Source: a virus (taxonomy: Duplodnaviria > Caudoviricetes). From it: a stretch of 63,605 nucleotides of DNA. The DNA is taken from positions 1 to 63,605 of the IMG/VR virus record IMGVR_UViG_3300046779_001075; one strand, written 5' to 3'. Shown here in pieces: positions 164 through 63,605 of the stretch (positions are counted from its first letter, which is position 1; each line of letters opens with the position of its first letter). Position numbers and translations under genes: made by a program. The notes under the pieces are model-generated. The model was not told the origin of the DNA and did not search any database. It saw only the letters and a program-made list of their open reading frames with translations.

Positions 164-862
164 ATGGGACGCCCTGCAAAGTTCAGCAACGCCGACGACC
201 TCATCAACAACTGCACCGTGAAGAACGACTGCTTCATCTGGCCCAACGCCAACCTTCCCTCACCTTTGCTCAGCCCAACCTCGCCGCTGGCACGGAAAGT
301 CGGAACCAACTCAGTACCCCGAATCCTCTTCATCCTGTGCCGATACCTCCCGGCCTCGACCCGATTGGTCAAGTGGTGCAACACACCTTTCTGTGTTAAC
401 CCGTATCACCACTCCGAGAACCGGAGCATCATGAACCGCCGACTTCGTGAGGGCACGGCGGGCGGTGCAATGAACCTGCTCCCTGAGCAAGAGTCAACGC
501 GACACCTGTTTGCTTCTGATGCTGAGTTGCTCCCGCTTCGACCCGTTGACCCGACAGTCAACCAACTCTTGGCCGCGACCGCCGCGCTCGCTGGGTTTGA
601 CGCTCGCAACCTGCCGCAGAACCGACTGATGGCTAAAGGTGTGCCTACCGCTGAAGAGGGCAAACCTGTGCTCGTCATGAAGAGTCTTGTGGAGAAGCAA
701 CAGCGTGAAGAGATCGCTGAAGCTGAAGCCACGACCGCTAAGGACGACACGGACGACTTCTGGAACGCTTTGGAGGCCAGCGTGGGTACGATGGTCGAGA
801 AGAGTAAGGAAAAAGAGGTGATCGACTACACAAAGCACCTCGCGCAGAACTCGTACCGATAA
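164..862 (+). CDS. Hypothetical protein with N-terminal HNH/His-Cys-like Zn-binding domain, probably catalytically degenerate
   Basis: DCFIWP...KWCNTPFCVNPYHH resembles the CWxW...HxCxNxxCVNPxH pattern; RBS AGGAG upstream. Confidence 0.55.
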   Translation: MGRPAKFSNADDLINNCTVKNDCFIWPNANLPSPLLSPTSPLARKVGTNSVPRILFILCRYLPASTRLVKWCNTPFCVNPYHHSENRSIMNRRLREGTAGGAMNLLPEQESTRHLFASDAELLPLRPVDPTVNQLLAATAALAGFDARNLPQNRLMAKGVPTAEEGKPVLVMKSLVEKQQREEIAEAEATTAKDDTDDFWNALEASVGTMVEKSKEKEVIDYTKHLAQNSYR

Positions 863-945: not shown

Positions 946-974
946 GAACTATCCGACACCCTGTCGGTATGTTC
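946..974. promoter_or_regulatory. 29-bp spaced palindrome, copy 1
   Basis: GAAC TAT CCGACA CCC TGTCGG TAT GTTC. Confidence 0.85.
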
Positions 975-1002
975 CAACCTCAATCCTTTATTGGAGATCA
1001 TC

Positions 1003-1317
1003 ATGAGCACAACACCCAAGCGGGTAATCTTCACCCGTGGACAACTGCTGGAGCACGAAGCTCTGGCCCGACTCTTAAAGGTGCCGGTCCGCGAGGTAAC
1101 AGAGGCGTACATGCGCTCCCTCAACGCCGCCCAGTATCACACCCCCATGACGCGCCCAAGCGTCTACGACCTACTTCAACCATTGCGTGCTCTACAGGAA
1201 GCGGAGCGTGACGGGCGTGATTTCACCCCGATCTTCTGGCACCGCACTGAGGACGGCGTGTTGCATCTAACGATGTGGGACGTGAACACATACAACATAC
1301 CACGAACACAGACTTGA
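1003..1317 (+). CDS. Hypothetical early protein
   Basis: ORF with GGAG RBS between two duplicated promoters. Confidence 0.75.
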   Translation: MSTTPKRVIFTRGQLLEHEALARLLKVPVREVTEAYMRSLNAAQYHTPMTRPSVYDLLQPLRALQEAERDGRDFTPIFWHRTEDGVLHLTMWDVNTYNIPRTQT

Positions 1318-1342
1318 CAAAGTCTAATTCCTATGGTATAAT
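1314..1342 (+). promoter_or_regulatory. Consensus sigma70 early promoter P2 (duplicate of P1)
   Basis: TTGACA-17 bp-TATAAT; about 56-bp near-identical repeat of 866-921. Confidence 0.92.
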
Positions 1343-1373
1343 ATACCTTGGTATATTAAATAGTAAGTCTACA

Positions 1374-1402
1374 GAACTTACCGACACAATGTCTTTTTGT
1401 TC
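1374..1402. promoter_or_regulatory. 29-bp spaced palindrome, copy 2
   Basis: GAAC TTA CCGACA CAA TGTCTT TTT GTTC. Confidence 0.8.
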
Positions 1403-1418
1403 TTATCAGGAGAAAGCT

Positions 1419-1652
1419 ATGACTAATTTTGACTGGCGCAGCTGCACCCACTGTGGTGACGATGTGCATGTGGAGCGGTGGAACCTTGGGTTTCATCTCT
1501 GCCTAATCTGCGGCGAAGATGCCGCAGTCTCTGATCGCGCATCTTGGTGCGTGGTGCAACCGTATGGGAAGGGCCCATACATGCTGGTGACAACTGCGTC
1601 TGCTCGTCAGACCGTGATGGACACCAATCAGAAACAAACCCGCTCAAACTAA
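1419..1652 (+). CDS. C4 zinc-finger protein, TraR/DksA-like finger
   Basis: CTHCGDDVHVERWNLGFHLCLICG matches the CxxCGxxIxxxRxxxxxxxCxxC pattern; AGGAG RBS. Confidence 0.6.
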   Translation: MTNFDWRSCTHCGDDVHVERWNLGFHLCLICGEDAAVSDRASWCVVQPYGKGPYMLVTTASARQTVMDTNQKQTRSN

Positions 1653-1674
1653 CCGACGCTATGTCGGATTGTTC
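1646..1674. promoter_or_regulatory. 29-bp spaced palindrome, copy 3
   Basis: AAAC TAA CCGACG CTA TGTCGG ATT GTTC; contains the upstream stop codon. Confidence 0.85.
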
Positions 1675-1697
1675 AACCTACCTATCTAGGAAATCAA

Positions 1698-2780
1698 ATG
1701 TCTTCTAAAGAACTCTCTTTCACCCGCCGTGTCAACTTCACGGAGACTGTGGACTTGCTACTCAACGCTGGCCACAATTCAATACACCTTACTGGCGAAC
1801 CGGGCGTGGGTAAAACCGCGATCCAAGATGTGCTTGTGGCGAGGACAGGCTTTCACAAGGTGTACATCGACGGCCCCAACACCGATGTGGGTCAAGCTGG
1901 CATGCCAATCCCGAACCATGAGTCGCGTACTCTGGACTTCTACCCTGCCGCCAACTATCGACTGCACACCAACGAGCCGTGCGTCATCATGATTGACGAG
2001 TGGACAAAGACTGACGACTATGTGCGTAACACACTGCACCCGCTGTTGCACGAGCGCCGACTTGGTGACTTCAACTTGCACCCCGAGACTATCGTCTTTA
2101 CTACGGGCAACATGGACAGCGATGGCGTGGGCGACAGTGCCAAGGCACACACTCGCAACCGTCAGACATGGCTGACATACATGAAGCCGAGCGCTGACGA
2201 GTGGTTGGTGTGGGCGGGCAATGCGGGCGTGGCTCCCGAGATCATGGCGTGGGTGAAAGAGTATCCGCACTGCATGGCGTCGTACATGGACGGCGGTCAG
2301 AAGGACAACCCGTACATCTTCAACCCATCGGACGCATCGCAGATTGCGTTTGTCTCGCCGCGTTCGTTGTACAAAGCGTCGCACTGGGTCAATGTGCGTC
2401 AACGCATTTCAGAGAATAGCTTGATCGCATCGCTGGACGGCACGATCGGCTTCTCTGCATCGCGGGACTTGCAAGCGTACATCGCCTTGGCTGACCAGCT
2501 GCCAACTCGCGAAGCCATTGAGTCGTCGCCCGATACCGCGCACATCCCGACCAGCCCTGCGGCTCTGTGCATCCTTGCGTTCAAGGGTGTGGCTGTGTGT
2601 ACTCGTGAGTCGTTCGCTGTGTGGCTGCGCTACATCAAGCGTATGCCTAAAGAAACACAAGCTGTGTTCATCAACTCCCTCCTTGAGATCAAGGACAAGA
2701 AGCAGTGGGCGATGGCGCACCCATCGTTCGTGTCGTGGGCTCGCGAGAACCAGTACATGTTTGCTGGACTCAAGGGCTAA
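1698..2780 (+). CDS. MoxR-like AAA+ ATPase
   Basis: Walker A GEPGVGKT, Walker B IMIDE, sensor-1 TTGN, SPRS sensor-2; nearby VWA gene. Confidence 0.88.
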   Translation: MSSKELSFTRRVNFTETVDLLLNAGHNSIHLTGEPGVGKTAIQDVLVARTGFHKVYIDGPNTDVGQAGMPIPNHESRTLDFYPAANYRLHTNEPCVIMIDEWTKTDDYVRNTLHPLLHERRLGDFNLHPETIVFTTGNMDSDGVGDSAKAHTRNRQTWLTYMKPSADEWLVWAGNAGVAPEIMAWVKEYPHCMASYMDGGQKDNPYIFNPSDASQIAFVSPRSLYKASHWVNVRQRISENSLIASLDGTIGFSASRDLQAYIALADQLPTREAIESSPDTAHIPTSPAALCILAFKGVAVCTRESFAVWLRYIKRMPKETQAVFINSLLEIKDKKQWAMAHPSFVSWARENQYMFAGLKG

Positions 2781-2807
2781 ACAATCAGACAACCAGTCGG
2801 AAAGTTA
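2779..2807. promoter_or_regulatory. 29-bp spaced palindrome, copy 4
   Basis: AAAC AAT CAGACA ACC AGTCGG AAA GTTA. Confidence 0.72.
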
Positions 2808-2810
2808 ATC

Positions 2811-3047
2811 ATGAAACAGAAACAATTACCCAAGATCGGTGTCCCTGTTGCGTACAAGGGGTGCTACATAGTCCGTGTGAACGACGGCTTTGATTGTGTT
2901 GACCGCACATCTGGTCGTTGGATACATCTGCCTGATGCACGGCGGGCGAAGTGGAACGCGACAGTCTGGTCACGCCTGAGTGATGAGTTCGGTGGCTCAT
3001 CCATTCGTGTCTTTACACCTGAGCAGGTGTTGGAGGGACTGAAGTGA
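2811..3047 (+). CDS. Hypothetical protein
   Basis: ORF in tightly packed operon. Confidence 0.65.
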   Translation: MKQKQLPKIGVPVAYKGCYIVRVNDGFDCVDRTSGRWIHLPDARRAKWNATVWSRLSDEFGGSSIRVFTPEQVLEGLK

Positions 3048-3235
3048 CAACATACGAAGACCCAAGAGACACAGCACTGCGGATGGTGAGTATGTACAAG
3101 CACAGCAAGTACACACCAGAGGAGCGAGCGACAGACCATGCGTTTTCGTATGACAGCAACAGCTCGCAACGCAAGTTCTGGCTCGCAGTCCTCAACCACA
3201 TCAACCAACCGAAGGGTAGAAATGAAAACTTTTGA
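3044..3235 (+). CDS. Hypothetical protein
   Basis: GTGA overlap with upstream stop; GGAGG RBS. Confidence 0.65.
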   Translation: MTTYEDPRDTALRMVSMYKHSKYTPEERATDHAFSYDSNSSQRKFWLAVLNHINQPKGRNENF

Positions 3236-3392
3236 GGTGGAACTACAACGCACCAGCTATGTCACCGTAACGGTGGAGGCTGAGAACGAAGACGATGCCG
3301 AGGCGCTTGCGTGGAAAAAGATCGAGCAAGACTGCGTCAACATCAACGACTCCCACTGGAGTCTCGAATCAATCGAGGAGGTGTTCTCGTGA
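3222..3392 (+). CDS. Small acidic protein, DpnD/PcfM-like
   Basis: MKTFEVELQRTSYVTVTVEAENEDDAE pattern. Confidence 0.55.
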   Translation: MKTFEVELQRTSYVTVTVEAENEDDAEALAWKKIEQDCVNINDSHWSLESIEEVFS

Positions 3393-3490
3393 AACCCTAC
3401 TTCACTTATGCAGAGACAGCATGGCGTGTTGCTTTGCTGGTGTTCTTAATCACAGTCCTACTGTTGGACTTATTTGTCTGGAGACCATGA
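3389..3490 (+). CDS. 33-aa membrane peptide (not in ORF track)
   Basis: GTG start after GGAGG; MKPYFTYAETAWRVALLVFLITVLLLDLFVWRP; overlaps both neighbours by 4 nt. Confidence 0.65.
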   Translation: MKPYFTYAETAWRVALLVFLITVLLLDLFVWRP

Positions 3491-3696
3491 TGGAATTTAC
3501 ATTGACAGAAATGTGGCTGATCGTGTGGGCGATAGCCGCTACTGCCTACGCGCTCAAGTTCCGCGAGGAAGCGAAGATGGTTAAGCATTTGCTCAAAGCA
3601 ATGCTCAGAGACCAAGTTGTGTACGACCGGATGAAAGCTGACCACGACACATTCATGAAGGAGATGAAAGATGCTGAAACCCAGAATGCCCGCTGA
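3487..3696 (+). CDS. Small protein with N-terminal hydrophobic helix
   Basis: MMEFTLTEMWLIVWAIAATAYALK; GGAG RBS. Confidence 0.65.
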   Translation: MMEFTLTEMWLIVWAIAATAYALKFREEAKMVKHLLKAMLRDQVVYDRMKADHDTFMKEMKDAETQNAR

Positions 3697-4912
3697 AAAG
3701 CGGATTGAGTTGGTGCATGTGAGCCTGATGCGAGCGCCAGAGTTTGCTCTGTTCGCGGGCCTGTTCATGGTGGGCAAGACCACTGTGGAAGACCTGCCGA
3801 TCACTGCGGCTACCAACGGGCGTGACGCACGATACGGGCGTGGCTTTGTGGATACGCTGACTGACAAAGAGTTAGCCTTTCTCATCATGCACGAGAACAT
3901 GCACAAGTGCTATCGACACCTGACCACATGGCGATCTCTGTATGATAGAGATAGGCGCGTGGCTAACCAAGCGTGCGACTATGTCATCAACATACAACTG
4001 TTGGACATGGACCCAGACGGCAAGCTACTGCACATGCCCAAGGACAAGAACACCGGTGCTGTGCTCGGGTTGGTGGACGCTCGCTTCCGTGGTATGGACA
4101 CACGGCAGGTGTTTGACATCTTGATGCAAGAGAAGCAAGATGGCGGTGGCGGCGGTGGTGATGGCGAGGGCGGCGGCGAACAATCAGACGGCGAGTCGGA
4201 TAGTTCAGGCGGGCTTGACCAACACGATTGGGAAGATGCTGTCAACGGCATGAGCAAGGAAGAGCAAGAGCAACTCGGGCGTGACATTGACCAAGCGTTG
4301 CGGCAAGGCGGTATCTATGCTGGCAAGGTTGGCGGCAACATGCCCCGTGAGATCGGTGAACTGCTCAAGCCCAAGGTCAACTGGCGTGAAGTCTTGCGTC
4401 GGTTCGTGCGTACTTCGCTCAAAGACCGTGACTCTGTGTCTTGGCGTAGGGCGCATAAGAACTACCTTTGGCAAGATGTGATTCTGCCGAGCATCATGGG
4501 CAAGCGGGTCAAGTCGCTGGTCATTGCGATGGACACATCGGGTTCGATACAGGGCCCGATACTGACTGAGTTCCTATCAGAGATGAACGCCATCGTGCGT
4601 GACATCGGTGCTGATCGCATTGATGTGCTGTATTGGGATACGGAGGTGGCTGGACACGAGACCTACAAGGGTACGAACAAGGACATCGTGCACCGTACTA
4701 ACCCTAGAGGTGGTGGTGGCACTGACCCTGACTGCGTGGTGGACTTCATGCACGAGCACGAACTCAAGCCTGATGCGCTCATCATGCTGACGGACGGCTA
4801 CATGCACAGTAACAAACCCAAGTGGGCTGCGATCAAAGCGCCGACTCTGTGGTGCGTGATTGGCAACGATAGCTACCAAGTTCCCAATGGCCAGAAGTTA
4901 AACATCAACTGA
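3671..4912 (+). CDS. HExxH metallopeptidase-like plus VWA domain protein (DUF2201-type)
   Basis: TAATNG, HENMH, acidic/Gly linker, MIDAS DTSGS, GGGGT, MLTDG. Confidence 0.9.
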   Translation: MLKPRMPAEKRIELVHVSLMRAPEFALFAGLFMVGKTTVEDLPITAATNGRDARYGRGFVDTLTDKELAFLIMHENMHKCYRHLTTWRSLYDRDRRVANQACDYVINIQLLDMDPDGKLLHMPKDKNTGAVLGLVDARFRGMDTRQVFDILMQEKQDGGGGGGDGEGGGEQSDGESDSSGGLDQHDWEDAVNGMSKEEQEQLGRDIDQALRQGGIYAGKVGGNMPREIGELLKPKVNWREVLRRFVRTSLKDRDSVSWRRAHKNYLWQDVILPSIMGKRVKSLVIAMDTSGSIQGPILTEFLSEMNAIVRDIGADRIDVLYWDTEVAGHETYKGTNKDIVHRTNPRGGGGTDPDCVVDFMHEHELKPDALIMLTDGYMHSNKPKWAAIKAPTLWCVIGNDSYQVPNGQKLNIN

Positions 4913-4922
4913 GGAGATAGAA

Positions 4923-5165
4923 ATGGATGATGAAGTTTTGTTGTGCATAGGCACAAGCCGAGTGGTGATGTCACCAGAGGAAGCGTTCAAGATATGTGCA
5001 GCTGTCAATGGCTCGTCGCGTATTGGTGCGCGTTGGACTAACGGCGGGAATGTGGAGACCCTGCAACCGCCATCTATGGATTCGTTCATAGCGTTCGTTG
5101 TCCCGTTCACGGGCCATATGCTAATGACACTGGATGCAAATGAGAAATCTGTGAAAGGAAAATGA
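4923..5165 (+). CDS. Hypothetical protein
   Basis: GAGGAG RBS; operon packing. Confidence 0.65.
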   Translation: MDDEVLLCIGTSRVVMSPEEAFKICAAVNGSSRIGARWTNGGNVETLQPPSMDSFIAFVVPFTGHMLMTLDANEKSVKGK

Positions 5166-5166
5166 A

Positions 5167-5340
5167 ATGAAACAGCAACAACAGCAGCCGGGTTACAGCG
5201 TGACCCTTAACAAAGAAACATACGACCTGCTCATGTCAGTCAAGGGTAGCCTTGTCGAGCAGCTGGGCTTCGAGCCCACCAACGGCCAAGTGGTACGCCA
5301 CCTGATCGCCGTCTTCCACATCTACAGTAGCGCAAACTAA
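5167..5340 (+). CDS. 57-aa ribbon-helix-helix-like DNA-binding protein (not in ORF track)
   Basis: YSVTLNKETYDLLMSVK...PTNGQVVRHLI fits strand-helix-helix RHH pattern; AAGGA RBS. Confidence 0.55.
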   Translation: MKQQQQQPGYSVTLNKETYDLLMSVKGSLVEQLGFEPTNGQVVRHLIAVFHIYSSAN

Positions 5341-5362
5341 CCGACAGTTTGTCGCAATGTTC
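5334..5362. promoter_or_regulatory. 29-bp spaced palindrome, copy 5
   Basis: AAAC TAA CCGACA GTT TGTCGC AAT GTTC. Confidence 0.85.
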
Positions 5363-5373
5363 AGGAGCATCCT

Positions 5374-5565
5374 ATGCCTTTAATTGTCATAGCGGGCACG
5401 GTCAAATATCGCCGCCCAAAGAAACACGAACTGCCTGTGATCGGCAGGTTGTATCAGAGCAACGAAATCTACAAGCGCAAGGAGCGCGAGAAACAAAGTT
5501 CGGAATTGTCCGAGCACATGTCTGTATTGCAAGTCGCTTTATTGAAAGGAAAAGATCATGTCTAA
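5374..5565 (+). CDS. Hypothetical protein
   Basis: AGGAG RBS directly after palindrome copy 5. Confidence 0.6.
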   Translation: MPLIVIAGTVKYRRPKKHELPVIGRLYQSNEIYKRKEREKQSSELSEHMSVLQVALLKGKDHV

Positions 5566-6571
5566 CACAGCAGGTGTGCCACACCTAAACTCATTCGCCG
5601 AGGCCAAGCGCCGGTACGAGAACACAAAGCCCATCCGTGGACATGCAGAGAAGGTGCGTCCCTTGGGTATCCGTCGTCACCACCGCATGGCGAGCGTAGC
5701 TATGCCTGACGCTGACACAGTTGTGTTCAGCTACTACGGCAAGCCGTTCGTTACTTGGCACTCAGACAACACATTCACCGTTACCAACAGCGTGTATCAG
5801 TCCGCGTATACGGCCAAGCATCTGTCGTACTTCCTACCCCGTCAGTGGTACACGGATTGGGTGAACTGCTCGATGGTGTTGCGTAACTTCAGCAGCCGGT
5901 ACCACATTCCACACAACGCCGCTTACAAGTTCGCCCCTGTGGGTGATAACTTTGATTTGGTTGATAAGCCTGTGGCTTACGCCATACGAAAGAAACGCAA
6001 TGGCCTTAAGCATGAGCTCGCTAAGTACGAGCCGTTCCTTGACTGGCTAACCGTAGTCTCATCTGTCTCTAACGAGGTGGAGAATGTTGAGGGTGAACAC
6101 GCTCTCAATGTGTTGCGTGAAGCCGCAGGTCTGCGTCCGCACGAGTGGTACACACAGCGTAGGGCCAAGTACCTAAGTTCGGGAGTTCCCTATGACCATG
6201 CCGATAAATCTATCAACGACTGGTACGCAAGCGAGTCATTACCCATGACCTTCAATGCTACATACAGCAAGCAGCATCGGTTTCACACGCCCACCTGCTC
6301 CCTCTTACTTGATTGGGTGAGCGGCGCTGACGCTGATAAGTGGGTGCATGCCATGCAGATTATCTCGGCTAGGGCTGGTGCACATCAGTGGCGCAAGGGC
6401 GAGGGCTACATATGGCGGCTGTCTGTTGACCAAGCCAAAGAGTACCTGAATGCGTTAGCCCTGCATGTGCACCGCGACACAGCGTTTTACTTTGAGCCAC
6501 TGCCCACGGGTGAGTTGGCTCCACGCACCAACACTCGGTACTTCCAAGTGTATGAAATTTCTTCAACCTGA
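5558..6571 (+). CDS. Hypothetical protein (337 aa)
   Basis: Long ORF with RBS; no motif recognised. Confidence 0.8.
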   Translation: MSNTAGVPHLNSFAEAKRRYENTKPIRGHAEKVRPLGIRRHHRMASVAMPDADTVVFSYYGKPFVTWHSDNTFTVTNSVYQSAYTAKHLSYFLPRQWYTDWVNCSMVLRNFSSRYHIPHNAAYKFAPVGDNFDLVDKPVAYAIRKKRNGLKHELAKYEPFLDWLTVVSSVSNEVENVEGEHALNVLREAAGLRPHEWYTQRRAKYLSSGVPYDHADKSINDWYASESLPMTFNATYSKQHRFHTPTCSLLLDWVSGADADKWVHAMQIISARAGAHQWRKGEGYIWRLSVDQAKEYLNALALHVHRDTAFYFEPLPTGELAPRTNTRYFQVYEISST

Positions 6572-6598
6572 ACAATCAGACATTGTGTCGGATAGTTT
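6570..6598. promoter_or_regulatory. 29-bp spaced palindrome, copy 6
   Basis: GAAC AAT CAGACA TTG TGTCGG ATA GTTT. Confidence 0.85.
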
Positions 6599-6623
6599 TA
6601 CCAACCGTTCTAAGGAGAACACC

Positions 6624-7502
6624 ATGACAGAGAATACTATGATCGCCCCGCCTGTTTCGTTGTCGTCGATGGCTATGCTCATCGAACTACGGATAAGCAC
6701 ATGGACTGCGCGTAAGCGTGACAAAGACACGACCACTGCGCTTAACGAAGAGAAGGAAGCATCGCAGGATGCGAGCTCTGTGTACAAGTATCTCATGGCG
6801 GGCAGTGACCACCTTGAGAAGATCGAGAAGTACGCCGCCAAGTGCCGCAACTGGAATTCACAGCAGACACTGCCGTGGATGAAGGGCGTGGGCTTGCTGC
6901 CGATGGACAACTTCTTTTCGTACCGCGAGCAGCTGGGCACGATGGAGGCCAACTTCAACGCGCTAGTCTCCGACTTCATTGTGGCGTACCCCAACCTTGT
7001 CAGCACACAAGCCTTCAAGTTGGGTAAGTACTTCAACGCTGACGAGTTCCCTGATGTTGCGTCGTTACCGCGCAGGTTCAAGTTCGAGTACAACTTTCTC
7101 CCTGTACCAGAGAAGGGTGACTTCCGCTTGCAGTGCGAAGAGCGTGTGCGTCTGGACTTGGCAGAGCAGTACGAGAAGATGTACAACAACAAGTTGGCCG
7201 AGGCCATGCGTGACCCGTGGGAGAGACTGCACGAGTTGCTACTCAAGATGAGTGAGACACTGACTGACTCACCTGATGGCAAGCGCCGCGTGTTCCGTGA
7301 CACCATCGTGACCAACGCTGTCGGCCTGTGCGACTTGCTGTCACGGCTGAATGTAACCAACGACCCGAAGCTGGAAGAGGCTCGCCGTATGCTGGAGAAA
7401 TCGGTTGTCAACCTTGACGCTGATGACCTCCGCAAAATCCCAAGCGCCCGTGCTGAACTGAAGAACAGCGTGGACGACATCATCAACAAATTCAACTGGT
7501 AA
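6624..7502 (+). CDS. DUF3150-like protein
   Basis: MLIELRISTWTARKRD start, TLPW...LLP, FPDVASLPRRFKF; family co-occurs with MoxR/VWA; TAAGGAG RBS. Confidence 0.65.
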   Translation: MTENTMIAPPVSLSSMAMLIELRISTWTARKRDKDTTTALNEEKEASQDASSVYKYLMAGSDHLEKIEKYAAKCRNWNSQQTLPWMKGVGLLPMDNFFSYREQLGTMEANFNALVSDFIVAYPNLVSTQAFKLGKYFNADEFPDVASLPRRFKFEYNFLPVPEKGDFRLQCEERVRLDLAEQYEKMYNNKLAEAMRDPWERLHELLLKMSETLTDSPDGKRRVFRDTIVTNAVGLCDLLSRLNVTNDPKLEEARRMLEKSVVNLDADDLRKIPSARAELKNSVDDIINKFNW

Positions 7503-7513
7503 GAAAGCAACAC

Positions 7514-8380
7514 ATGGCAAACTTTGTAAACATCCGTCTGCCCGAAGACAAACTACTCGACCCCGAACTGAAGAAGATCGTGGATAAGCTAGCAATAGAC
7601 AACCCTAAGTGGGTGTTCACTGCGTCGAAGCGTGGCAACTCTTACGCTCGTGGTGTCAGCTACACCACGCTGACCAGCCAACCTATTGCGCCTGACGGCT
7701 TCACCTTTGTGCGTGTGGTCGATGTGTCGTGCGACTCAGAACTCTTGGGCGGGGTGTATGTCGATAGCTTCTACGGACGCAATGCCACGCAGAGTTGGCG
7801 GTACAACATCAAGTGCTGGCGTGTCACGAAGGAGCGCGGCGCTAGAGATACAACCAGCACCACCAAGGCAGATGTAGCCCTACGCCACATCAAGAAGTTG
7901 TTCAAGCCGATGGACTACGCAGAGACTATGGTTCATGCAGTGGCGGCAGTGGAGGGAGGTTTCAACGATGCGTTGCGTGCGTTGAGAGACCCTATCCGCG
8001 CCATGCGGTTAGTCAAAAGCACTGCGGCCTTGCAAGCATACGCTTTGTCGAAAGCCCTTGGCGAGCCCGTTGTGTCGCCCGACTTGATAGAGATCGAGCG
8101 TACACTGCAGTCGGACTCGTACAAGCAAGCTATGGCCGAGTACTTCTTGTCGGAAGACATGATGAAGCTGTACGGCACGGACAAGCTGCGCGTAGTGGTG
8201 GCGTTGGGTGACAACCGATACCTGCACAGGAACGATGCCGAGTTGATCGCGTCTGACTTTGACAAGCTGCCCGAGCGTATGCAGAACCACATCAGTGTTC
8301 TACACCTGATGCAGGACAACGAGATCGTGCGCGATGTCGGCTTCAGATACAACGATACACACTTCTATGTAATAGTGTAA
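7514..8380 (+). CDS. Hypothetical protein (288 aa)
   Basis: Long ORF ending before terminator. Confidence 0.8.
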   Translation: MANFVNIRLPEDKLLDPELKKIVDKLAIDNPKWVFTASKRGNSYARGVSYTTLTSQPIAPDGFTFVRVVDVSCDSELLGGVYVDSFYGRNATQSWRYNIKCWRVTKERGARDTTSTTKADVALRHIKKLFKPMDYAETMVHAVAAVEGGFNDALRALRDPIRAMRLVKSTAALQAYALSKALGEPVVSPDLIEIERTLQSDSYKQAMAEYFLSEDMMKLYGTDKLRVVVALGDNRYLHRNDAELIASDFDKLPERMQNHISVLHLMQDNEIVRDVGFRYNDTHFYVIV

Positions 8381-8397
8381 CGATCGCCAACCAACAC

Positions 8398-8424
8398 AGA
8401 CCCGCTTCGGCGGGTCTTTTTTTT
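8398..8424 (+). terminator. Rho-independent terminator ending early region
   Basis: AGACCCGC-TTCG-GCGGGTCT plus T run. Confidence 0.93.
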
Positions 8425-8434
8425 GTCTATACTA

Positions 8435-8463
8435 GAACAACCCGACACGCTGTCTGATTGTTC
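8435..8463. promoter_or_regulatory. 29-bp spaced palindrome, copy 7
   Basis: GAAC AAC CCGACA CGC TGTCTG ATT GTTC. Confidence 0.85.
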
Positions 8464-8498
8464 CATTGGGGTAGGTGTTTCCCCCTATAAAATAATTC

Positions 8499-8526
8499 TT
8501 GACACTGTCTAATCCCCACCTATAAT
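8499..8526 (+). promoter_or_regulatory. sigma70 promoter for replication operon
   Basis: TTGACA-16 bp-TATAAT; spacer retains GTCTAAT seen in P1/P2. Confidence 0.85.
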
Positions 8527-12825: not shown

Positions 12826-12929
12826 CTTGGCCGTTCCCACCACCCACTGGCCCCGTGCCGTGGACACCAGAGCAGATCAGACAGTACGAGCAACAAAAGC
12901 GCGAGAGCGCAGGAGAAGCATTGCTATGA
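12822..12929 (+). CDS. 35-aa Pro-rich peptide (not in ORF track)
   Basis: MTWPFPPPTGPVPWTPEQIRQYEQQKRESAGEALL; ATGA overlaps at both ends. Confidence 0.65.
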   Translation: MTWPFPPPTGPVPWTPEQIRQYEQQKRESAGEALL

Positions 12930-13249
12930 GACACATACTCTTAACGACTGCACTACTTTGTGGTGGTGCACAGGCGCAGTTCTTCACGGGCAACGACTTG
13001 CTGACTCGCCTTAACTCAGACATACCGGTTGATCGTGGTCTTGGCATGGGGTTCATCATGGGTGTGTATGACGCAACACTGACGATTGAACACTGCCCAC
13101 CATCCAACGTGACGGCTGGTCAGGTCAGGGACATGGTGGCAAAAAACCTGTACAGCGGAGCCGCCGCCCGACACCTACCCGCTGAAGCGTTTATCACCTA
13201 CACACTCGGGGCCGCATGGCCCTGCCCAAAGAAAGGAAAGGGCGTATGA
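12926..13249 (+). CDS. Rap1a/Tai-like secreted immunity protein
   Basis: Signal peptide ending AQA, TGNDLL, GFIMGVYD, CPP..VT.GQ, RHLPA, AWPC; AGGAG RBS. Confidence 0.8.
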   Translation: MRHILLTTALLCGGAQAQFFTGNDLLTRLNSDIPVDRGLGMGFIMGVYDATLTIEHCPPSNVTAGQVRDMVAKNLYSGAAARHLPAEAFITYTLGAAWPCPKKGKGV

Positions 13250-13798: not shown

Positions 13799-13947
13799 CT
13801 AAAGAAGAAGCCCTGCAAACAATCAAACTACTGTCCGCGCTGGAGTCGTGGGCGTTCAGCACAAAGACTTCGTTGCCCGACTACCTGCACGACGACTTGC
13901 AAGGGGCAATGAAAGTTCTTGAGAAAATCGTACTGGAGAAGCAATGA
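13795..13947 (+). CDS. Hypothetical protein
   Basis: GAGG RBS; ATGA overlaps. Confidence 0.6.
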   Translation: MTKEEALQTIKLLSALESWAFSTKTSLPDYLHDDLQGAMKVLEKIVLEKQ

Positions 13948-14246
13948 CCCCTGTGCGTCAGAAAAGAATCCGCACACTGCTACGCACAAGGCCGAGCGGC
14001 ATGTCGCCACTGGAGATTGCCGAGGCGCTTGGCATGCACCCAGCTAACGTACGCACTTCTTTGAGGGCTATGCCAGATGTGTATGTTGACCGCTGGCGCT
14101 TGGGTGGCCGTGGTCAGTACGAGAAGGTGTGGGTTGCAGTGCATGTGCCAGAGGACTGCCCTCACCCCAAAGACCGCACCAAGTGGGGCGTTCACCACAA
14201 GAAACCAAAGACCCAGTGGGTCATAACCGAAGGAGTAAGAGCATGA
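13944..14246 (+). CDS. Winged-HTH-like protein, paralog A
   Basis: GMSPLEIAEALG...NVRTSL...MPDVYVDRW...VPEDCPHP. Confidence 0.65.
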   Translation: MTPVRQKRIRTLLRTRPSGMSPLEIAEALGMHPANVRTSLRAMPDVYVDRWRLGGRGQYEKVWVAVHVPEDCPHPKDRTKWGVHHKKPKTQWVITEGVRA

Positions 14247-17649: not shown

Positions 17650-18540
17650 ATGAGCAACATTCAAACATTCCGTGGCGACCTGCCAGCCCACCTGCAAAAC
17701 GTCAAACTCGATGACTTCACACAGGCGTTCAAATCGTCTGGCGGTAGCATCAAGCGCATCACACTGCGCGGGCGTGTTTTCCGTCTGGTGGACGGCGGCA
17801 AAGAGATCGCCAAGAACACTGACCCACACATGGACGTGGTGATCGTCAGCGGTAGCAAGACTGTGCAGAAGGCGTACTACGCCGGTGAGTACAACGCCGA
17901 CGAGACCTCCGTGCCTGACTGCTGGTCCAGCGACGGCGAGCGCCCAGACGCAGATGTGGCTGACCCACAAGCAGAGCGTTGCAAAGACTGCCCACAAGCC
18001 ATCAAGGGCTCGGCGGGCGCAGGTCGCGCAGCTTGCCGTTACTCTTGGCGTCTCGGTGTGGCCCTGCGTAACAATGTCGGCGGCGACATCTACCAACTCA
18101 TCCTGCCACAGAAGTCCATCTTCGGCCAAGGTGACGTTGAGCACATGCCCTTCTTGCAGTACGCCAAGTACGTTGCACAGTCCGGCTACAACCTGAACAT
18201 GCTGTCCACCCGTCTGTCGTTCGACACTGACAGCGACTTCCCCAAGCTGGTGTTCAGCAACGCTGAGTTCCTCGACAAGGACACATACCAGACCGCCGTC
18301 GAACAAGGTCAGACCCAAGTTGCGATCAATGCAGGTCGTCTGAACTTCACGAAGAAGCAAACCGCCGCTCCTGTGCTCCCTAAGCTGGTTGCTCCTGCTG
18401 GCTCCGCCGCCGCAGAAGTCAAAGCAGCTTCGGATGCGATCGTCGAGCCTACGGTTCGTACCACAGCCAAGGTCAAGGAAGCTCCCAAAGAGAAGCAGAA
18501 CCTTGCCAAGCTGATGGACGAATGGGGAGATGACGAATGA
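17650..18540 (+). CDS. Putative ssDNA-binding/annealing protein
   Basis: PDCWSSDG, CKDCPQ, ACRYS Cys motifs; acidic tail DEWGDDE; replication context. Confidence 0.6.
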   Translation: MSNIQTFRGDLPAHLQNVKLDDFTQAFKSSGGSIKRITLRGRVFRLVDGGKEIAKNTDPHMDVVIVSGSKTVQKAYYAGEYNADETSVPDCWSSDGERPDADVADPQAERCKDCPQAIKGSAGAGRAACRYSWRLGVALRNNVGGDIYQLILPQKSIFGQGDVEHMPFLQYAKYVAQSGYNLNMLSTRLSFDTDSDFPKLVFSNAEFLDKDTYQTAVEQGQTQVAINAGRLNFTKKQTAAPVLPKLVAPAGSAAAEVKAASDAIVEPTVRTTAKVKEAPKEKQNLAKLMDEWGDDE

Positions 18541-18761
18541 TTGGGTACAGTCAGCAGGTTGTCAAAACCAACCGAGATGCTGATGGCCGCAAACTGGGGG
18601 TTTGTCTTGGGCGATACTGCATCAACCGAGAAATCCCAGTTGCGGATGTGATGGAATACTTCGGGGTGTCAAAGCAAACTGTGTACAGCTGGTACGCAGG
18701 GACGCACACCCCAAGTAAGCGCCACGCAATCCTCATCAGTAAATTCCTTGGTAAGTCTTAA
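18537..18761 (+). CDS. HTH (Cro/XRE-like) DNA-binding protein
   Basis: VADVMEYFGVSKQTVYSWYAG..TP. Confidence 0.8.
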   Translation: MIGYSQQVVKTNRDADGRKLGVCLGRYCINREIPVADVMEYFGVSKQTVYSWYAGTHTPSKRHAILISKFLGKS

Positions 18762-21906: not shown

Positions 21907-21973
21907 TGCAACTCGCAGTTGCTTCTCTCCTCTGATAGGGTTAAGCCCCGCCGTAACAAGCGGGGCTTTTTTT
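21907..21973 (+). ncRNA. Candidate small RNA with anti-Shine-Dalgarno segment
   Basis: TTGCGG-18-TAGAAT promoter, 5' hairpin GCAACT/AGTTGC, TTCTCTCCTC tract, terminator. Confidence 0.45.
21943..21973. terminator. Terminator at convergence of the two gene blocks
   Basis: AAGCCCCGC-loop-GCGGGGCTT plus T run. Confidence 0.9.
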
Positions 21974-24900
21974 ACTGGTTCGCCAGATAGTTCTGCCGTG
22001 ACAGCGATTCGCGCAGACGCTTGTCGATGTACAGACCGTTCTCAGTCTGTGCCGACTTCTTCATACGCTCAATGATAGAACCGGTGATGGAATCCGCAGG
22101 GATGCGCACCGACGGATGCTTGTCGTTGAACTCCATGATCTTATCGAACGCTTCCTCGTTGGCCTCAACGTCGTTGGACATGAAGGTCAACCCGTAGTAG
22201 TTCAACAGGTTCTGGCGCTGCTTCAAGATTTCCTGCTCTTGGCCTTTGACCGTGATGTTGTAGTACTGACGTTCGGCCAACTCTTGCGAGCGCAGACCCA
22301 GACCCTGCATCATCAAGATGAACGGGCTGGGGTTCTCAGTGAGCATGTCGCCGCGCAAAGTAGTTGCACCACCTTCACGTGACATACGCTGAGCAATCAT
22401 GGCGTTCTTGATGAAGGCGGGCGAGATCGCCTCGACAGCACGGTCTCCATGACCTTGGTTCCACAAGTCAACTGCGCGGGCAGCGTTAACACCAATACCG
22501 ATGGTTGGGCCAAGCAGGTCCACGAGGAACGTCTGCAGTGCCTCTGCTTCGTCTTGATTCTTACGACCATCACGGAACCACATCTCATCGAGCTTCACAC
22601 GGCTACCGATGTCCAGACCAGTCAAGGCGTTGAGCGAACCGCGTGTCAGGGCAGTGCCCATGTTTGCGCCAAACGTCTCGTTGGCCCAGTTCACGAAGGC
22701 CAGCTCGAAGTCGAACGGCTCTTCATCGTCATCCCCGCCCGCTACGTTGAACACAGCGTTGATGATCGACGCGACAGTCGAGAAGCCCCAGAGACCAGTG
22801 ACCCCAGAGAAGATGGCTGACATGCCCATCGTTCCAACAAAACGCGCACGTGCTTCGCGTCTTTGCTCAGGCGGCAAATCTTTGATCGAGTTCAGCAGGT
22901 TGCGTGTCAGGAAGAAGGTCATCTGCTGCGGGAACTGCTTGAACTGCCACACGATGCGAGCAATTGGGCTCTGGAAGTAGCGCGGCTTGTTGGCTGACGA
23001 GTAGTCAAACATAGCCGTGTTCGTAAGGTTCTTCGCTTCTGCAATAGATTCTGCAAATGCCTGCTGCCGGTTGGGCATGCTGGCGCGTTTGTCCATAGCT
23101 GCGCGGAACGCAGACATAGCCATAACTTCACGGTTGAAGCGTTCAGCGTGGTGGAACGCATACGACAGCACCTGCATGCTCTTGTTGCGCAGGCCAGAAT
23201 AGTTCTCTGTTGGTGTCGAGGCCAGACCAGACTGGTCGTACGTCGCAGTGATGTCGATCAGACCGTCAGCAACGAACCGGTCGTATGCTGCCCGCTCGAC
23301 TGAACTGAGTCTATCGGAGCGGTCAAACGACGGAGACAGCAGGCGGCTATCAATCTTCCGCTCGCCCACTTCTACGTTAAAGCCGGTCATCATGATCTGT
23401 GCAGCAGCTCTGCTTGTCTCGTACAGCACCTTACCAGTTGCGGCGGTGTAACCCATCTTTGGGTTTGCCTTCACCTGCTGGCTGACCAATGTTGGGAACC
23501 CGATGACCACACCACCCAATACGTTGGTGATGGCAGATGCGATTGAGCTCAGGTAGAAGATAAACCCGACGTTGGACAGCATGGAGGGGATAGTCCCGAT
23601 GTCCGTTGGGTTCAGCATGTTGTCCAGACGCTTGCTGACCTCATTCACGTAGTCGCGCAGTTCGTCGGTCTCGCGCACAACGGTTGGGTCGTAACCCACG
23701 TTGGGGTCGTAGCGGTCTTTCAACTGCATACGCGCAGCATCCAACTGAGAGAACATCTCAGGTGAATACTCAAAGCGAGCCATCTGGTACGCCATGTTGA
23801 AGGAAGACGTAGCGAAACTGCGCAACGCATCTTCAGAGTAGCCTGCCACGTTGTTACGGTGGATAAACTGATTGCGCATGCTGCGGTCAGGCTGGTTGCT
23901 CAGATAGGTCTGGTAGTAGCTATCCTTGAGTTCCTGCTTCTTCGCATCGGCATCTGCAGGGCTCAAGCCTGTGACGTCGATCTTGTCAACTGCCTCGAAC
24001 ACTGCCTTGAGAAAGGCAGACTCGCGGGCATGGTAGTCCATCTGCTTGGTGTAATCGTTACCAATATTAGTACCGATGGTGTCAGCCAAGTGTGGGTCTT
24101 TCTGCAGCCGCTCTTCGATGTGTCGATCACGTGCAGCCTCAGACTCAAACATGTAGTATTCGCGGCCTGCGCCCTTACCGATCTGGTACCAGAAGCGACC
24201 GAAACGCATCAATGGGAAGTATGGCCCGCTGAGCTTGCCCTTCTCGAACTCGTTGCGAATCTCGGTAATCGTAGCTTCAGACACACCCAACTGGCGCATC
24301 TGAATGATACGGCGGTTCATCAAGCGCTTGTAGTTAGAGTACCGGCGCTCGTAGAAGTCACGCACATCGCGGTAGACCTGTTTGGCGCGGGGGTCCAATT
24401 TGCCCCACTCAACCATCAGTTCTTGGTTGGCGTTGCGCTGCTTGGTCGTTGCCTTATCTGGGTCAACTTCCTTGATCGTGGCCATGTGCATGACGCGGCC
24501 AATCTGCCGAGACATTTCAGGGTCAGCAGACTGCAGTGCTTCCCACGACTTGGAGATGTCGCCAGCTTCTTGCAAGATGCTGTTCTTTCTCGACAGGAAC
24601 TCTTCCGTCACGCGAATGAAGTTGGTGATCTGCGGCAAACGGCCAGCAATCAAGTCGTCGAGCTGACGCAAGGTGAGCACGCCCAGTGCGTACGGACGTG
24701 CGCTTGACTCGAGGCTTCTGAACTCGCGCATGAGTGCGCTGTCCCACTTCCGGCTGGTCATCAAGCGCTTGATGGCGCTAGGTTGGTTGGGCATGCCGGG
24801 GCGCATAGGCTTGATGCGGGTGACCTTACCGGCCATAGCCTTGGGTCCACTGCTGCCAACCAAGCCTTCGAGGGACATTGGGCCAGCGATCATGGCGTCG

Positions 24901-61696: not shown

Positions 61697-61725
61697 GAAC
61701 AAAGCGACATTCGGTCGGTTTGTTC
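61697..61725. promoter_or_regulatory. 29-bp spaced palindrome, copy 8
   Basis: GAAC AAA GCGACA TTC GGTCGG TTT GTTC. Confidence 0.82.
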
Positions 61726-61764: not shown

Positions 61765-62424
61765 ATGTCTGCTTCTGTTAATTCCGCTGTTGCGGCTGTC
61801 CCTGCTTCTGATGTTGCCTTGTTCAACGGCGCACCGATCGAGTCGTCCCTGATCGAAACCCTCGAACAGTTGGGCCGTGACTATCAGACCGCTGAGGATG
61901 CTCAGGCCGTTGCGATTCGTTCGCTGAGCAAGTGTGATGTGGCCTTGTTCGATATCGTCAAGGGCTTGCCTTACGCTGAGTTCAAAACTGTGCGTGGCTT
62001 TGTGGTCAATGGTCTGCGTGACAAGGGTTCACCCTCTGACGATGCCGCTGGCAAAACTTGGGAGCGTGCTATCAATCGCATTGCATCGTCATGCGGCTTT
62101 GAGCGTCCTAAGGCGACAAGCGAAGCGGCTGAGCGCATGGCTAAAAAGCGGGCTGAGCTGGCCGCAAAGTTCGCTGACAAGTCAGACGGCGAGTTGCTTG
62201 AGTTGCGCTCTGAGCTGGCCGCCAAGGGTGACACTAAGTCCTTGGCTCAGGCTCGCATCATTGCCAAAGAGTTGGAGACACGCGAAAAGCCAGCATTGGA
62301 TGCGGCTCAGGGTCTGCGCGTTCAAATGCGTGACAAGCTGATTGCTCGTGCCAAAGAATTGTGCAAAGCGGGCACTACTGACGCTGACAATATGTTGATC
62401 GCGGCTTTGCAAGCTGTGGCTTAA
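61765..62424 (+). CDS. Hypothetical Ala-rich helical early protein
   Basis: GGAG RBS; first gene of + strand block. Confidence 0.8.
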   Translation: MSASVNSAVAAVPASDVALFNGAPIESSLIETLEQLGRDYQTAEDAQAVAIRSLSKCDVALFDIVKGLPYAEFKTVRGFVVNGLRDKGSPSDDAAGKTWERAINRIASSCGFERPKATSEAAERMAKKRAELAAKFADKSDGELLELRSELAAKGDTKSLAQARIIAKELETREKPALDAAQGLRVQMRDKLIARAKELCKAGTTDADNMLIAALQAVA

Positions 62425-62891: not shown

Positions 62892-62896
62892 TCTTT

Positions 62897-62925
62897 GCCC
62901 GCCATGTTTCGGCATGGCGGGCTTT
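62897..62925 (+). terminator. GC-rich hairpin, probable terminator
   Basis: GCCCGCCATG-TTTCGG-CATGGCGGGC-TTT. Confidence 0.7.
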
Positions 62926-63100
62926 GATGCCAGTCACTGTATTGATGCCAGTTCTGTAACCAACGAACGGAGTAGTCGATGAACGGCGTAGCTCGTAGCG
63001 AGCAACGGGCGAGTCCCTGTTCAGCGTGGCGGGCGATGAATCGCGTCGCACACTAGGTTCTTACTTGATACCAGTCACTGGAAGAAACGGGGTAGGCCAC

Positions 63101-63129
63101 GAACAAACCGACAGTTCGTCGGATTATTC
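63101..63129. promoter_or_regulatory. 29-bp spaced palindrome, copy 9
   Basis: GAAC AAA CCGACA GTT CGTCGG ATT ATTC. Confidence 0.82.
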
Positions 63130-63559
63130 TATTCTTTACATACACAAGATTGCCCAGACCGCACGGCCCGCTCGCCAAGTGTGCAATAGGTTAAGTTTAG
63201 TATTACATTCTAACGGCAACATATCTTTATTCGCCCTCAACGGGCAAGGCGGGCATCACCCCCAAACCCGCACCACATAAGGCTTAGCGGGCAACGCACC
63301 TCAGCTACGACAAGCACCCATTTAATAATGTTCAGGTCGCGCTCACGGTAACAGGCGAAACCCCCTATGCAACAGGCGCTATTTTTTCTTCCTCCCAACG
63401 GGCAAGTCCTTGATTTTATTGAACTTCTTCTTATACTATACTTAAATAAAAATAATAATAAACAACATGCGGCCAAAAATTAAAACTATGAAGAGACCTA
63501 GGAATCCCCCTCTTCCAAGGCTTCACCCGACCTCCCGCCGCGCCCACCTCGCCGCCGCT

Positions 63560-63605
63560 CTCTTCCCCTCTTTCACAATTCCAAAAGATGGCCGCATGGT
63601 ATTTA
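63560..63605 (+). repeat. Terminal direct repeat / circular overlap, right copy
   Basis: 43/46 identity to 1-46. Confidence 0.9.

Follow-up and report, generated by a model that had tools for sequence, protein, structure and literature searches.

The phage genome analysed here, IMG/VR record IMGVR_UViG_3300046779_001075 (Duplodnaviria; Caudoviricetes), is a complete virus record of 63,605 bases with a G+C content of 52–57%, and its whole length, positions 1 to 63,605, is referred to below as the window. Its early genes are punctuated by copies of a 29-bp spaced palindrome, RAAC-WAW-CCGACA-N3-TGTCGG-WWW-GTTC, which is the subject of this work. These genes open a plus-strand arm that runs from ~61,700, across the record ends, to ~21,900; the early arm is unbroken across the window ends, as the flanking genes are adjacent in relatives. 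Small unknown genes come first, followed by those for a MoxR-type AAA ATPase (1698–2780), a DUF2201/VWA protein (3671–4912) and a DUF3150 protein, and, further downstream, an endonuclease, a family A DNA polymerase, a helicase and a primase-helicase. The minus strand (21,972–61,610) encodes the terminase, the portal, the structural proteins and a virion protein of 2335 aa. A megablast search of a phage collection returned no close named relative. By polymerase identity, the nearest named phages are Rhizobium phage RHph_TM3_14A (36%) and Pseudomonas phage KPP25 (34%); the former has the same gene layout, but a repeated palindrome of the 29-bp kind was not found in it. No integrase or recombinase family was matched among the proteins scanned (a subset of the ORFs), and the phages carrying the 29-bp site are apparently virulent.

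The site consists of outer 4-bp blocks, A/T-rich 3-bp linkers, inner blocks of 5–6 bp and a free centre, and it is two-fold symmetric. A first-pass annotation of the sequence had listed nine copies under the consensus given above, and all nine were verified at their positions. The count itself was one short: a symmetric weight matrix, trained on the nine listed copies and run over the circularised genome with 50 shuffles as a control, finds an independent tenth copy at 4178–4206 with 34.0 bits, in the range of the nine training copies, which match by construction (30.3–39.6 bits). The next-best position reaches 9.6 bits, and the shuffle maxima average 8.1 bits, the largest being 18.9. When at most one mismatch is allowed, 6 instances of the core CCGACA-N3-TGTCGG are found where chance predicts 0.11 (100 shuffles, maximum 1), while the full consensus with up to three mismatches, a limit which the copy at 2779 exceeds, retrieves 9 sites against 0 for a back-to-front control pattern. 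All ten copies lie in the arc from 61697 to 8463 and nothing near their score occurs elsewhere, which bears out the restriction to the early region proposed in that annotation.

The early arm is served by perfect (12/12) matches to the sigma-70 promoter TTGACA-17-TATAAT, all on the plus strand: P1 (877–905), which also has the TG element, and P2 (1314–1342), which is a near-duplicate of the P1 cassette. One strong intrinsic terminator (8398–8417, plus strand; an 8-bp G+C stem followed by a T run) ends the early units, and a third 12/12 promoter, P3 (8499–8526, plus strand), begins the replication module and has no site downstream. The first copy of the 29-bp site (61697–61725) is the first element of the early arm and stands 39 nt upstream of the ATG of the gene at 61765–62424 (g61765, plus strand), and the second (63101–63129) lies in apparently non-coding DNA. 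The third (946–974) and the fourth (1374–1402) are centred 55 bp past the −10 element of P1 and 46 bp past that of P2, respectively. The fifth (1646–1674), whose linker TAA is the stop codon of the gene at 1419–1652, precedes the AAA ATPase gene. The lowest-scoring copy is the sixth (2779–2807; 30.3 bits), which covers part of the ATPase stop and leaves 3 nt to the following ATG. The newly found seventh copy (4178–4206) is inside the gene for the DUF2201_N and VWA-like protein (3671–4912, plus strand). The linker TAA of the eighth (5334–5362) is the stop codon of a gene for a ribbon-helix-helix (RHH)-like protein, the ninth (6570–6598) overlaps the stop of the gene at 5558–6571, and the tenth (8435–8463) sits between the early terminator and P3, its centre 77 bp before the end of the P3 −10 element.

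The copies had been described as lying at gene boundaries or in non-coding DNA, which is true of nine of them, these being intergenic or overlapping a stop codon, but not of the one within the DUF2201/VWA gene. The four overlaps with upstream stops (at 1650–1652, 2778–2780, 5338–5340 and 6569–6571) are as previously reported, and so is the rarity of promoters: a strong sigma-70 promoter lies in the 110 bp upstream of only two of the ten copies. From a copy to the next ATG the distance varies from 3 to 75 nt. Neighbouring copies in the window are 1404, 1450, 428, 272, 1133, 1399, 1156, 1236 and 1865 bp apart, and those of one relative (G001) 1851, 1230, 1129, 1160, 1129, 589, 1431 and 1253 bp; in the window and its relatives the spacings cluster at ~1.1–1.45 kb, with some shorter and some of up to 2.4 kb.

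As a separate observation, the ~880 bp around the copy at 63101 (62892–63605 plus 1–163) hold no convincing gene. The ORFs at 63026–63280 and 63467→221, the latter reading in frame through the record ends, are of odd composition, and have neither a family nor a homologue beyond the site region.

A symmetric DNA site in several versions

The exact consensus is present in 13 IMG/VR stretches, with 1–7 copies each, whose proteins are 47–95% identical to those of the window. In the relatives the 29-bp architecture recurs 7–11 times in each, always inside the ~10-kb early arm; five of them, whole or near-whole, carry 9, 9, 8, 7 and 8 copies, each set within ~10 kb beside the terminase end and none elsewhere. 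The letters of the site are a different matter. A search anchored on the ATPase gathered 29 loci, only 11 of which were matched by the matrix of the window's version (class A), while the others showed the same 29-bp architecture in different letters. By version, 16 of these 29 loci belong to class B, GGA(A/C/T)-N3-TCGACA-N3-TGTCGA-N3-(T/G/A)TCC, six to class A, four to class D, GAAC-N3-TCGAAW-N3-WTTCGA-N3-GTTC, and one to class C, GGAA-N3-CCCTK-N5-MAGGG-N3-TTCC, with two in no recognised class; scans for additional genomes of classes C and D brought up none of class C. A second search, anchored on the first early gene, gathered 51 loci and revealed class E, GAAC-AAA-CCAACR-N3-YGTTGG-TTT-GTTC, at four of them (L118, L119, L136 and L140), which differs from the window's site by one base pair per half-site.

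There are thus at least five versions, with GAAC or GGAN as the outer block and CCGACA, TCGACA, TCGAAW, CCAACR or CCCTK as the inner one. Across them the total length and the block positions are constant, whereas the outer and inner blocks vary separately. The version is uniform within a genome, and a switch alters both halves in concert, as expected when the specificity of a binder changes. Phages with ATPases as much as 77–95% identical carry different versions. In a more distant locus (L045, ATPase 30% identical), the 29-bp element is replaced at 6529–7843 by three copies of another palindrome, (T/G)GCGTAAGT-W-ACTTACGC(A). The 3-nt centre, for its part, is not absolutely fixed, since variants with 2 nt (CCGACA-GA-TGTCGG, at ~7440–7470 of G009:C1) and 4 nt (TCGACA-TCCA-TGTCGA, in G005 after the promoter at 28775) exist. 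Literature searches on KPP25, early-region palindromes and stoperators turned up no description of such arrays.

A palindrome may be read as duplex DNA or may fold as RNA, and the pattern of changes between copies speaks to this. The comparison used 193 distinct sites (48 of class A, 104 of B, 9 of C and 32 of D) from the window and 28 related loci, sites within 40 nt of the edge of a locus being left aside and identical contexts removed. Most arm positions pair (1,653 of 1,776 position pairs are Watson–Crick) because both halves are conserved; the 123 others comprise 32 G.T, 25 A.C and 66 further mismatches, with no bias towards G.U. Within versions, 80 changes affect only the left half and 80 only the right; compensated changes number 25, of which 14 fall at the weakly conserved fourth position of class B, and 20 are double but unpaired. 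These figures (160 one-sided against 25 compensated changes) agree with the earlier remark that mismatches are not compensated. The linkers, A/T-rich as they are, are mostly non-complementary (A/A in 25 of the 48 class A sites, for example), the flanks and the centre are unconserved, and none of the 193 copies is followed by the T tract that an intrinsic terminator would have. Predicted RNA folding energies of the ten window copies spread from −3.9 to −13.5 kcal/mol (z-scores −1.6 to −5.2), and Rfam has no match anywhere in the window. Uncompensated and side-balanced changes, together with the lack of a G.U bias, point to a symmetric binder that recognises each of two half-sites on its own, in duplex DNA; the preference for a DNA site over an RNA stem, already voiced in the first-pass annotation, is therefore upheld by the covariation, the wobble counts and the folding range of the copies.

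The copy within the DUF2201 gene bears on selection. It sits in a G/D/E-rich, low-complexity linker of variable length, and the peptide of this linker encodes the site of each version: EQSDGESDS in class A, NDRQDV in class B and NNPDGEGNS in class C. The recoding of a linker peptide to spell the site of its own version argues for selection on the site itself. Without this copy, the gap between its neighbours would be 2.5 kb. On the other hand, the exact class A consensus, searched as the perfect consensus of one version, has only five single matches, in unrelated taxa, among 185,579 bacterial and archaeal species genomes (596 billion bases), and no genome is matched twice. This is chance level and speaks against the box of a host regulator, an identity which, according to the first-pass annotation, would have counted against its own reading. 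The recoded linker and the chance level in bacterial genomes argue together for a phage-encoded binder rather than for a host box. The evidence from sequence thus points to the 29-bp element being a double-stranded DNA site for a symmetric, phage-encoded binder that co-evolves with it.

Candidates for the binding protein

A protein that is near-identical between phages of different versions cannot set the specificity of the site, and most of the early proteins fall under this rule. The highest identity between versions is 97% for the DUF3150 protein, 96% for the RHH-like protein, 93% for the large terminase subunit (terL), 92% for g1419, 83% for the polymerase, 81% for the DUF2201 protein and 67% for g164, and the endonuclease and others lie likewise within 67–97%. 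Only four families, g61765, g5558, g7514 and g8831, stay at or below 52%.

Several DNA-binding candidates had been or could be put forward. The RHH-like protein (57 aa; 5167–5340, plus strand), whose pattern was read by eye and has no family match, had been suggested as the binder in the first-pass annotation. It cannot set the inner specificity, since it is 94% identical, with the same predicted N-terminal strand, between L020 (class A) and L021 (class D), where the inner half-sites differ. The same annotation had stated that neither an integrase nor a CI-type repressor is present; the first half of this statement stands for the proteins scanned, but the second is weakened by a Cro/CI-type helix-turn-helix (HTH) protein at 18537–18761. 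This protein and a winged HTH protein at 13944–14246 are both weak family matches, and the former was rejected as the determinant as its recognition helix is conserved in all versions. No non-orthologous early-arm gene is both shared by every member of a version and confined to that version, and a genome-wide scan of gene families in 11 genomes found none that cleanly separates the versions. Among the four divergent families, g5558 (5558–6571, plus strand) has a confident mixed alpha/beta model (pLDDT 88.8, pTM 0.77) without a PDB match at E ≤ 0.001, so that its fold may be undescribed.

The candidate favoured here is encoded by the first early gene, g61765, whose product is a predicted all-helical homodimer of 219 aa. 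This protein is 56% identical within versions and 40% between them. After regression on ATPase identity (pairs more than 97% identical in the ATPase being skipped), its excess identity within versions is 15.0 points, against at most 7.3 for 13 other gene families. The pair L020 and L021 illustrates this: their DNA is 81% identical overall and their g61765 proteins only 37%, whereas the window and L020, both of class A, share 66%. The effect recurs in 30 further loci, where belonging to the same version adds 13.8 points to g61765 identity after terL identity is accounted for; in 300 permutations of the labels the mean was −0.2 and the largest value 7.2, and the adjacent gene m60370 shows an effect of +0.8. 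These 30 loci remained after 15 of 52 had been dropped for having fewer than two concordant sites, together with L125 (unassigned inner block), loci with short matches and duplicates. Moreover, the divergence is graded. At terL identities of 87–94%, g61765 is 69–76% identical between classes A and E, whose sites differ by 1 bp per half-site, 46–52% between A and D, which differ by 3 bp, and 36–39% between A or E and B; the class E homologues are 69–76% identical to the class A one of L137.

The g61765 model is all-helical (pLDDT 83.6), and the symmetric homodimer model scores 0.77 against 0.00 for the best of three controls. This mark is reached by 20 of 30 proteins solved as one-chain pairs and by one of 23 solved as single chains, counts which are approximate here as the g61765 model was made from a custom alignment. 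At least 95% of the contacts agree between dimer runs, and the partner pLDDT is at least 83. The family has 272 detected members, and all of the 120 listed are unnamed or hypothetical. An Atlas comparison gave weak leads only, DUF3102 (0.78) and a phage repressor c domain (0.77).

Several points weigh against this assignment. In the first set of loci, g61765 was alone in having the minimum number of changes both for version (3) and for outer type (1), but on the trees of the larger set the version changes 7 times on g61765, terL and m60370 alike (the minimum possible being 6), so that the trees do not discriminate between these genes. The versions are largely bound to clades, and the pairwise tests rest on non-independent pairs. 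Within class A, the g61765 proteins do not share one N-terminal architecture but come in short and long forms. The protein has no recognisable DNA-binding fold: Foldseek found no match in the PDB at E ≤ 0.001, the best VIA-align hit (Z 6.4) concerns generic helices only, no Pfam, NCBIfam or PHROG family is matched, and the computed pI is 6.4. On balance, the sequence comparisons and models make it a candidate, at slightly less than even confidence, for the binder or a part of it.

Two other genes of the plus-strand arm deserve mention in their own right. The product of g164 (164–862, plus strand), which has no family match, and all its homologues keep a C..C...C....CVNP.HH pattern in the N-terminal ~90 residues, which, read by eye, we take to resemble the zinc-binding loop of His-Me finger nucleases with W replacing the catalytic His. 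At 12827–13249 (plus strand), a protein of 140 aa matches the Pfam family Rap1a (PF18602, E 2.5e-13, above the cut-off), a family named for immunity proteins and unusual within a phage replication module.

Promoters and the possible roles of the array

The function of the array was approached through a census, over ten genomes, of strong sigma-70 promoters (11 or 12 of 12 matches), which yielded 30. In the early arm, 13 of them are followed by a site centred 46–94 bp after the −10 element. The promoters of the replication module (five) have the last site 70–89 bp upstream and none downstream, six promoters 7–8.4 kb further on have no site nearby, and two lie elsewhere in the genome. The copy at 61697 is itself preceded by a conserved TATAGT-containing stretch, which, read by eye, could be a weaker promoter. 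With a site soon after each main start and further sites inside the operons, the array extends just as far as the early sigma-70 units do.

The promoters show two further features. At P1 and P2 a second inverted repeat, TAATATACC-TT-GGTATATTA, spans the −10 element and the start point (902–921 and 1339–1358). In relatives its arms vary (GTAC, CTAC and GTATC types) but stay complementary, the types being independent of the 29-bp version, and it is not present at the promoters of the replication module; it may constitute a second operator system. In addition, the −35 region of every strong promoter in the ten genomes is extended to ACTTGACAAAGTCTA, which forms a short palindrome of its own (ACTT..AAGT) around TTGACA and is found in the window at 875–888, 1312–1325 and 8497–8510.

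Among the three functions listed in the first-pass annotation, a stoperator-like roadblock fits the census best, while DNA entry and cassette recombination stay as rivals. It is proposed here, with confidence evenly balanced, that a phage-encoded dimer bound to the early operator array halts the host polymerase within the early units and leaves the replication promoters active. In this model, a symmetric phage protein would read the two half-sites independently, at least five versions having arisen as its specificity and the sites evolved together, and the 7–11 operators would cover exactly the early transcription units read by host sigma-70 RNA polymerase. As the binder accumulates, it would occupy the sites 25–60 bp downstream of the early starts and further points inside the operons, blocking the elongating polymerase and lowering early gene expression. 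In the replication module, whose sigma-70 promoters are just as strong but have no downstream operator, transcription would continue. With the g61765 product as the best candidate for the binder, the circuit would resemble a Cro-type timer with distributed, stoperator-like sites, and it would be self-regulating, given the operator in the leader of g61765 itself.

Some observations sit badly with this proposal. In G007, G008 and G010 the strong early-arm promoter ahead of g164 lacks a downstream site, and one G005 early-arm promoter is followed only by the variant with a 4-nt centre. The copy at 8435 is past the terminator, outside any early unit, and a pure roadblock does not explain it. Neither does a roadblock explain the retention of the copy in DUF2201 and the clustering of spacings at ~1.1–1.4 kb.

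These last observations are the ground of a different reading, in which a phage protein binds the sites as spaced nucleation or loading points and coats, bridges or condenses the first 10 kb, with no control of transcription, be it by spreading of the ParB/KorB type, as a DNA-entry ratchet or as protection of the first-entering DNA. Such a role would suit the spacing clusters at 1.1–1.45 kb, the copy kept in DUF2201 where a gap of 2.5 kb would open, the one copy past the early terminator, the eight of ten window copies without a nearby promoter, and a candidate binder predicted to be a long-helix dimer. It is nevertheless rather unlikely. The early proteins scanned include no match to ParB/Srx, SMC or KfrA, the spacing tracks the conserved gene order and is not strict (with gaps of up to 2.4 kb in G003), and the tight link to early promoters would not be needed. 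Besides, the records are cut arbitrarily or with assembly repeats, so that physical ends and the direction of entry are not readable from them.

Considerably less probable is that the copies act as RNA hairpins in a polycistronic early transcript, serving its processing, its stabilisation or translational control through a phage RNA-binding protein. The copies do lie in transcribed early DNA, at gene junctions near ribosome binding sites, the 29-mers can fold with the z-scores given above, and the complementarity of the arms is kept between versions. This is countered by the excess of one-sided over compensated changes with the two halves equally affected, by G.U not being preferred on the mRNA strand (32 vs 25), by linkers that are mostly unpaired, by the wide spread of stabilities, by the absence of an Rfam match and by the copy at 8435, which is past the terminator. 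In addition, proteins that read hairpins usually read the loop, whereas the centre is free here.

A similarly low probability is given to the copies being points of recombination or shuffling that move accessory early genes, like the PeSL elements of T4-type phages or integron attC sites. A sporadic gene (1003–1317) does lie between the near-identical promoter and site cassettes P1/946 and P2/1374, two others (2811–3047 and 5374–5565) begin right after a copy, and some homology blocks between L021 and L020 start or end within 50 bp of one. Nonetheless, none of the proteins scanned matches an integrase or recombinase, and the copies hold the same positions beside core genes in all relatives. 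Site positions that are selectively conserved while the centre and the linkers drift indicate recognition rather than recent copying.

It is highly improbable that the copies are single-stranded DNA hairpin promoters of the N4 type, read by an injected polymerase that would be the 2335-aa virion protein. The inner arms would give a 6-bp stem with a 3-nt loop, as in N4 early promoters, and residues 196–411 of the giant protein match the N-terminal part of the PHROG virion RNA polymerase profile (phrog_2206), but the polymerase part of this profile is unmatched. Pfam finds only LPD39 in the giant protein, no PDB sequence matches it, and its C-terminal 900 residues are PLxRFG/DarB-like. Furthermore, the loop is unconserved, the distance to the next ATG varies and one copy is intragenic, and the early arm is already driven by consensus sigma-70 promoters. 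Regarding its architecture, the protein (21972–28979, minus strand) combines an N-terminal region like that of the N4 virion RNA polymerase (196–411), LPD39 (1425–1585) and the PLxRFG/DarB-like C-terminus of 900 aa, the last as in the ~60-kb podophages PEp14, SopranoGao and Skulduggery.

Equally improbable is the exploitation by the phage of sites for a host transcription factor or nucleoid protein, in keeping with which the site is symmetric and of regulator-like size, but against which stand both the five single matches to the perfect class A consensus in 596 billion bases, none twice per genome, and the different versions in phages with 77–95% identical ATPases.

To return to the proposed operator array, its most far-reaching extension is that array and fast-evolving early dimer form a self/non-self system of virulent phages, which is speculative and rather more doubtful than the shut-off itself. 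The binder of a first phage would silence the early arm of a later-entering relative of the same version, and an arms race among co-occurring lake phages would have split the system into at least five mutually orthogonal protein–operator versions. This would amount to superinfection immunity without lysogeny.

If the shut-off model were right, a virulent podophage would close its early genes and yet keep the host sigma-70 polymerase for later ones, and it would do so through a downstream operator array, not a global polymerase inhibitor. The g61765 protein family would gain a testable role, and at least five site versions with a co-diverging candidate would provide a test bed for the evolution of protein–DNA specificity, as well as a set of orthogonal repressor–operator pairs for engineering. 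Cross-exclusion between uncultured phages would become predictable from sequence alone.

Comparison with known systems

Various systems share some of these features. The hairpin promoters of the N4 virion RNA polymerase have a short stem and a 3-nt loop, both with conserved bases, and stand at a constant distance from the start. Like them, the 29-bp sites are restricted to the early region of a podophage with a giant virion protein, but Pfam, PHROG and PDB sequence comparisons show no polymerase homology, the loop is free and the distance to genes is not fixed. The PeSL cassettes of T4-type phages are repeated modules of an early sigma-70 promoter and an inverted repeat that flank variable early genes. 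P1/946 and P2/1374 flank the gene at 1003–1317 in the same manner; unlike PeSL, a promoter accompanies only two of the ten window copies, and the copies are conserved in position beside core genes. Integron attC sites go with IntI and are long, variable and imperfect palindromes, whereas the sites described here are 29 bp long and uniform within a genome, with no recombinase among the scanned proteins. Structured RNAs keep their pairing through compensatory or wobble changes, and here one-sided changes outnumber compensated ones by 160 to 25, with G.T (32) close to A.C (25).

The OB sites of KorB (RK2) and the SopB/ParB sites of N15 are simple palindromes of 13–20 bp whose binders have a ParB/Srx domain. 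The 29-bp sites resemble them as palindrome copies dispersed over kilobases, some far from promoters, for which one dimeric protein that silences or organises a region is proposed here too. Pfam found no ParB/Srx match in the ~30 proteins scanned here, a result which remote homologues could escape. As for lambda Cro, it acts only at the OR and OL operators, which overlap promoters, and has a known HTH fold. Similarly to Cro, the first product of the early operon would bind symmetric operators and damp early transcription in lytic growth; unlike those of Cro, the sites follow the starts and continue into the operons, and an HTH is not recognisable in the candidate.

The closest known system is the stoperator network of the Cluster A mycobacteriophages, such as L5 and Bxb1. 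Stoperators are asymmetric sites of 13 bp, oriented with transcription and present in up to ~30 copies over the whole genome, where they are bound by the monomeric immunity repressor of temperate phages (PMC6550527). They are mostly off promoters, in short intergenic gaps, and are thought to halt the elongating polymerase, and their motif differs between related phages and tracks the sequence of the binder (PMC6550527, PMC9283540). The likeness lies in a short site repeated many times, for the most part off promoters and in gaps (ten in the window, eight of them without a strong promoter within 110 bp upstream), and in a motif that varies between related phages and follows the sequence of the binder, here a candidate. 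The differences begin with the site. It is composite, two-fold symmetric and 29 bp long, with deviations shared equally between its halves (80 left-only and 80 right-only) where stoperators are asymmetric and oriented. Its 7–11 copies are restricted to the early arm, within ~10 kb in the window and in the five relatives, where stoperators are spread genome-wide. Finally, stoperators belong to temperate phages, and here no integrase was found among the scanned proteins. With two of the defining features of stoperators absent and the phages apparently virulent, the array is best described as a variant of a stoperator-kind system rather than as a member of it.

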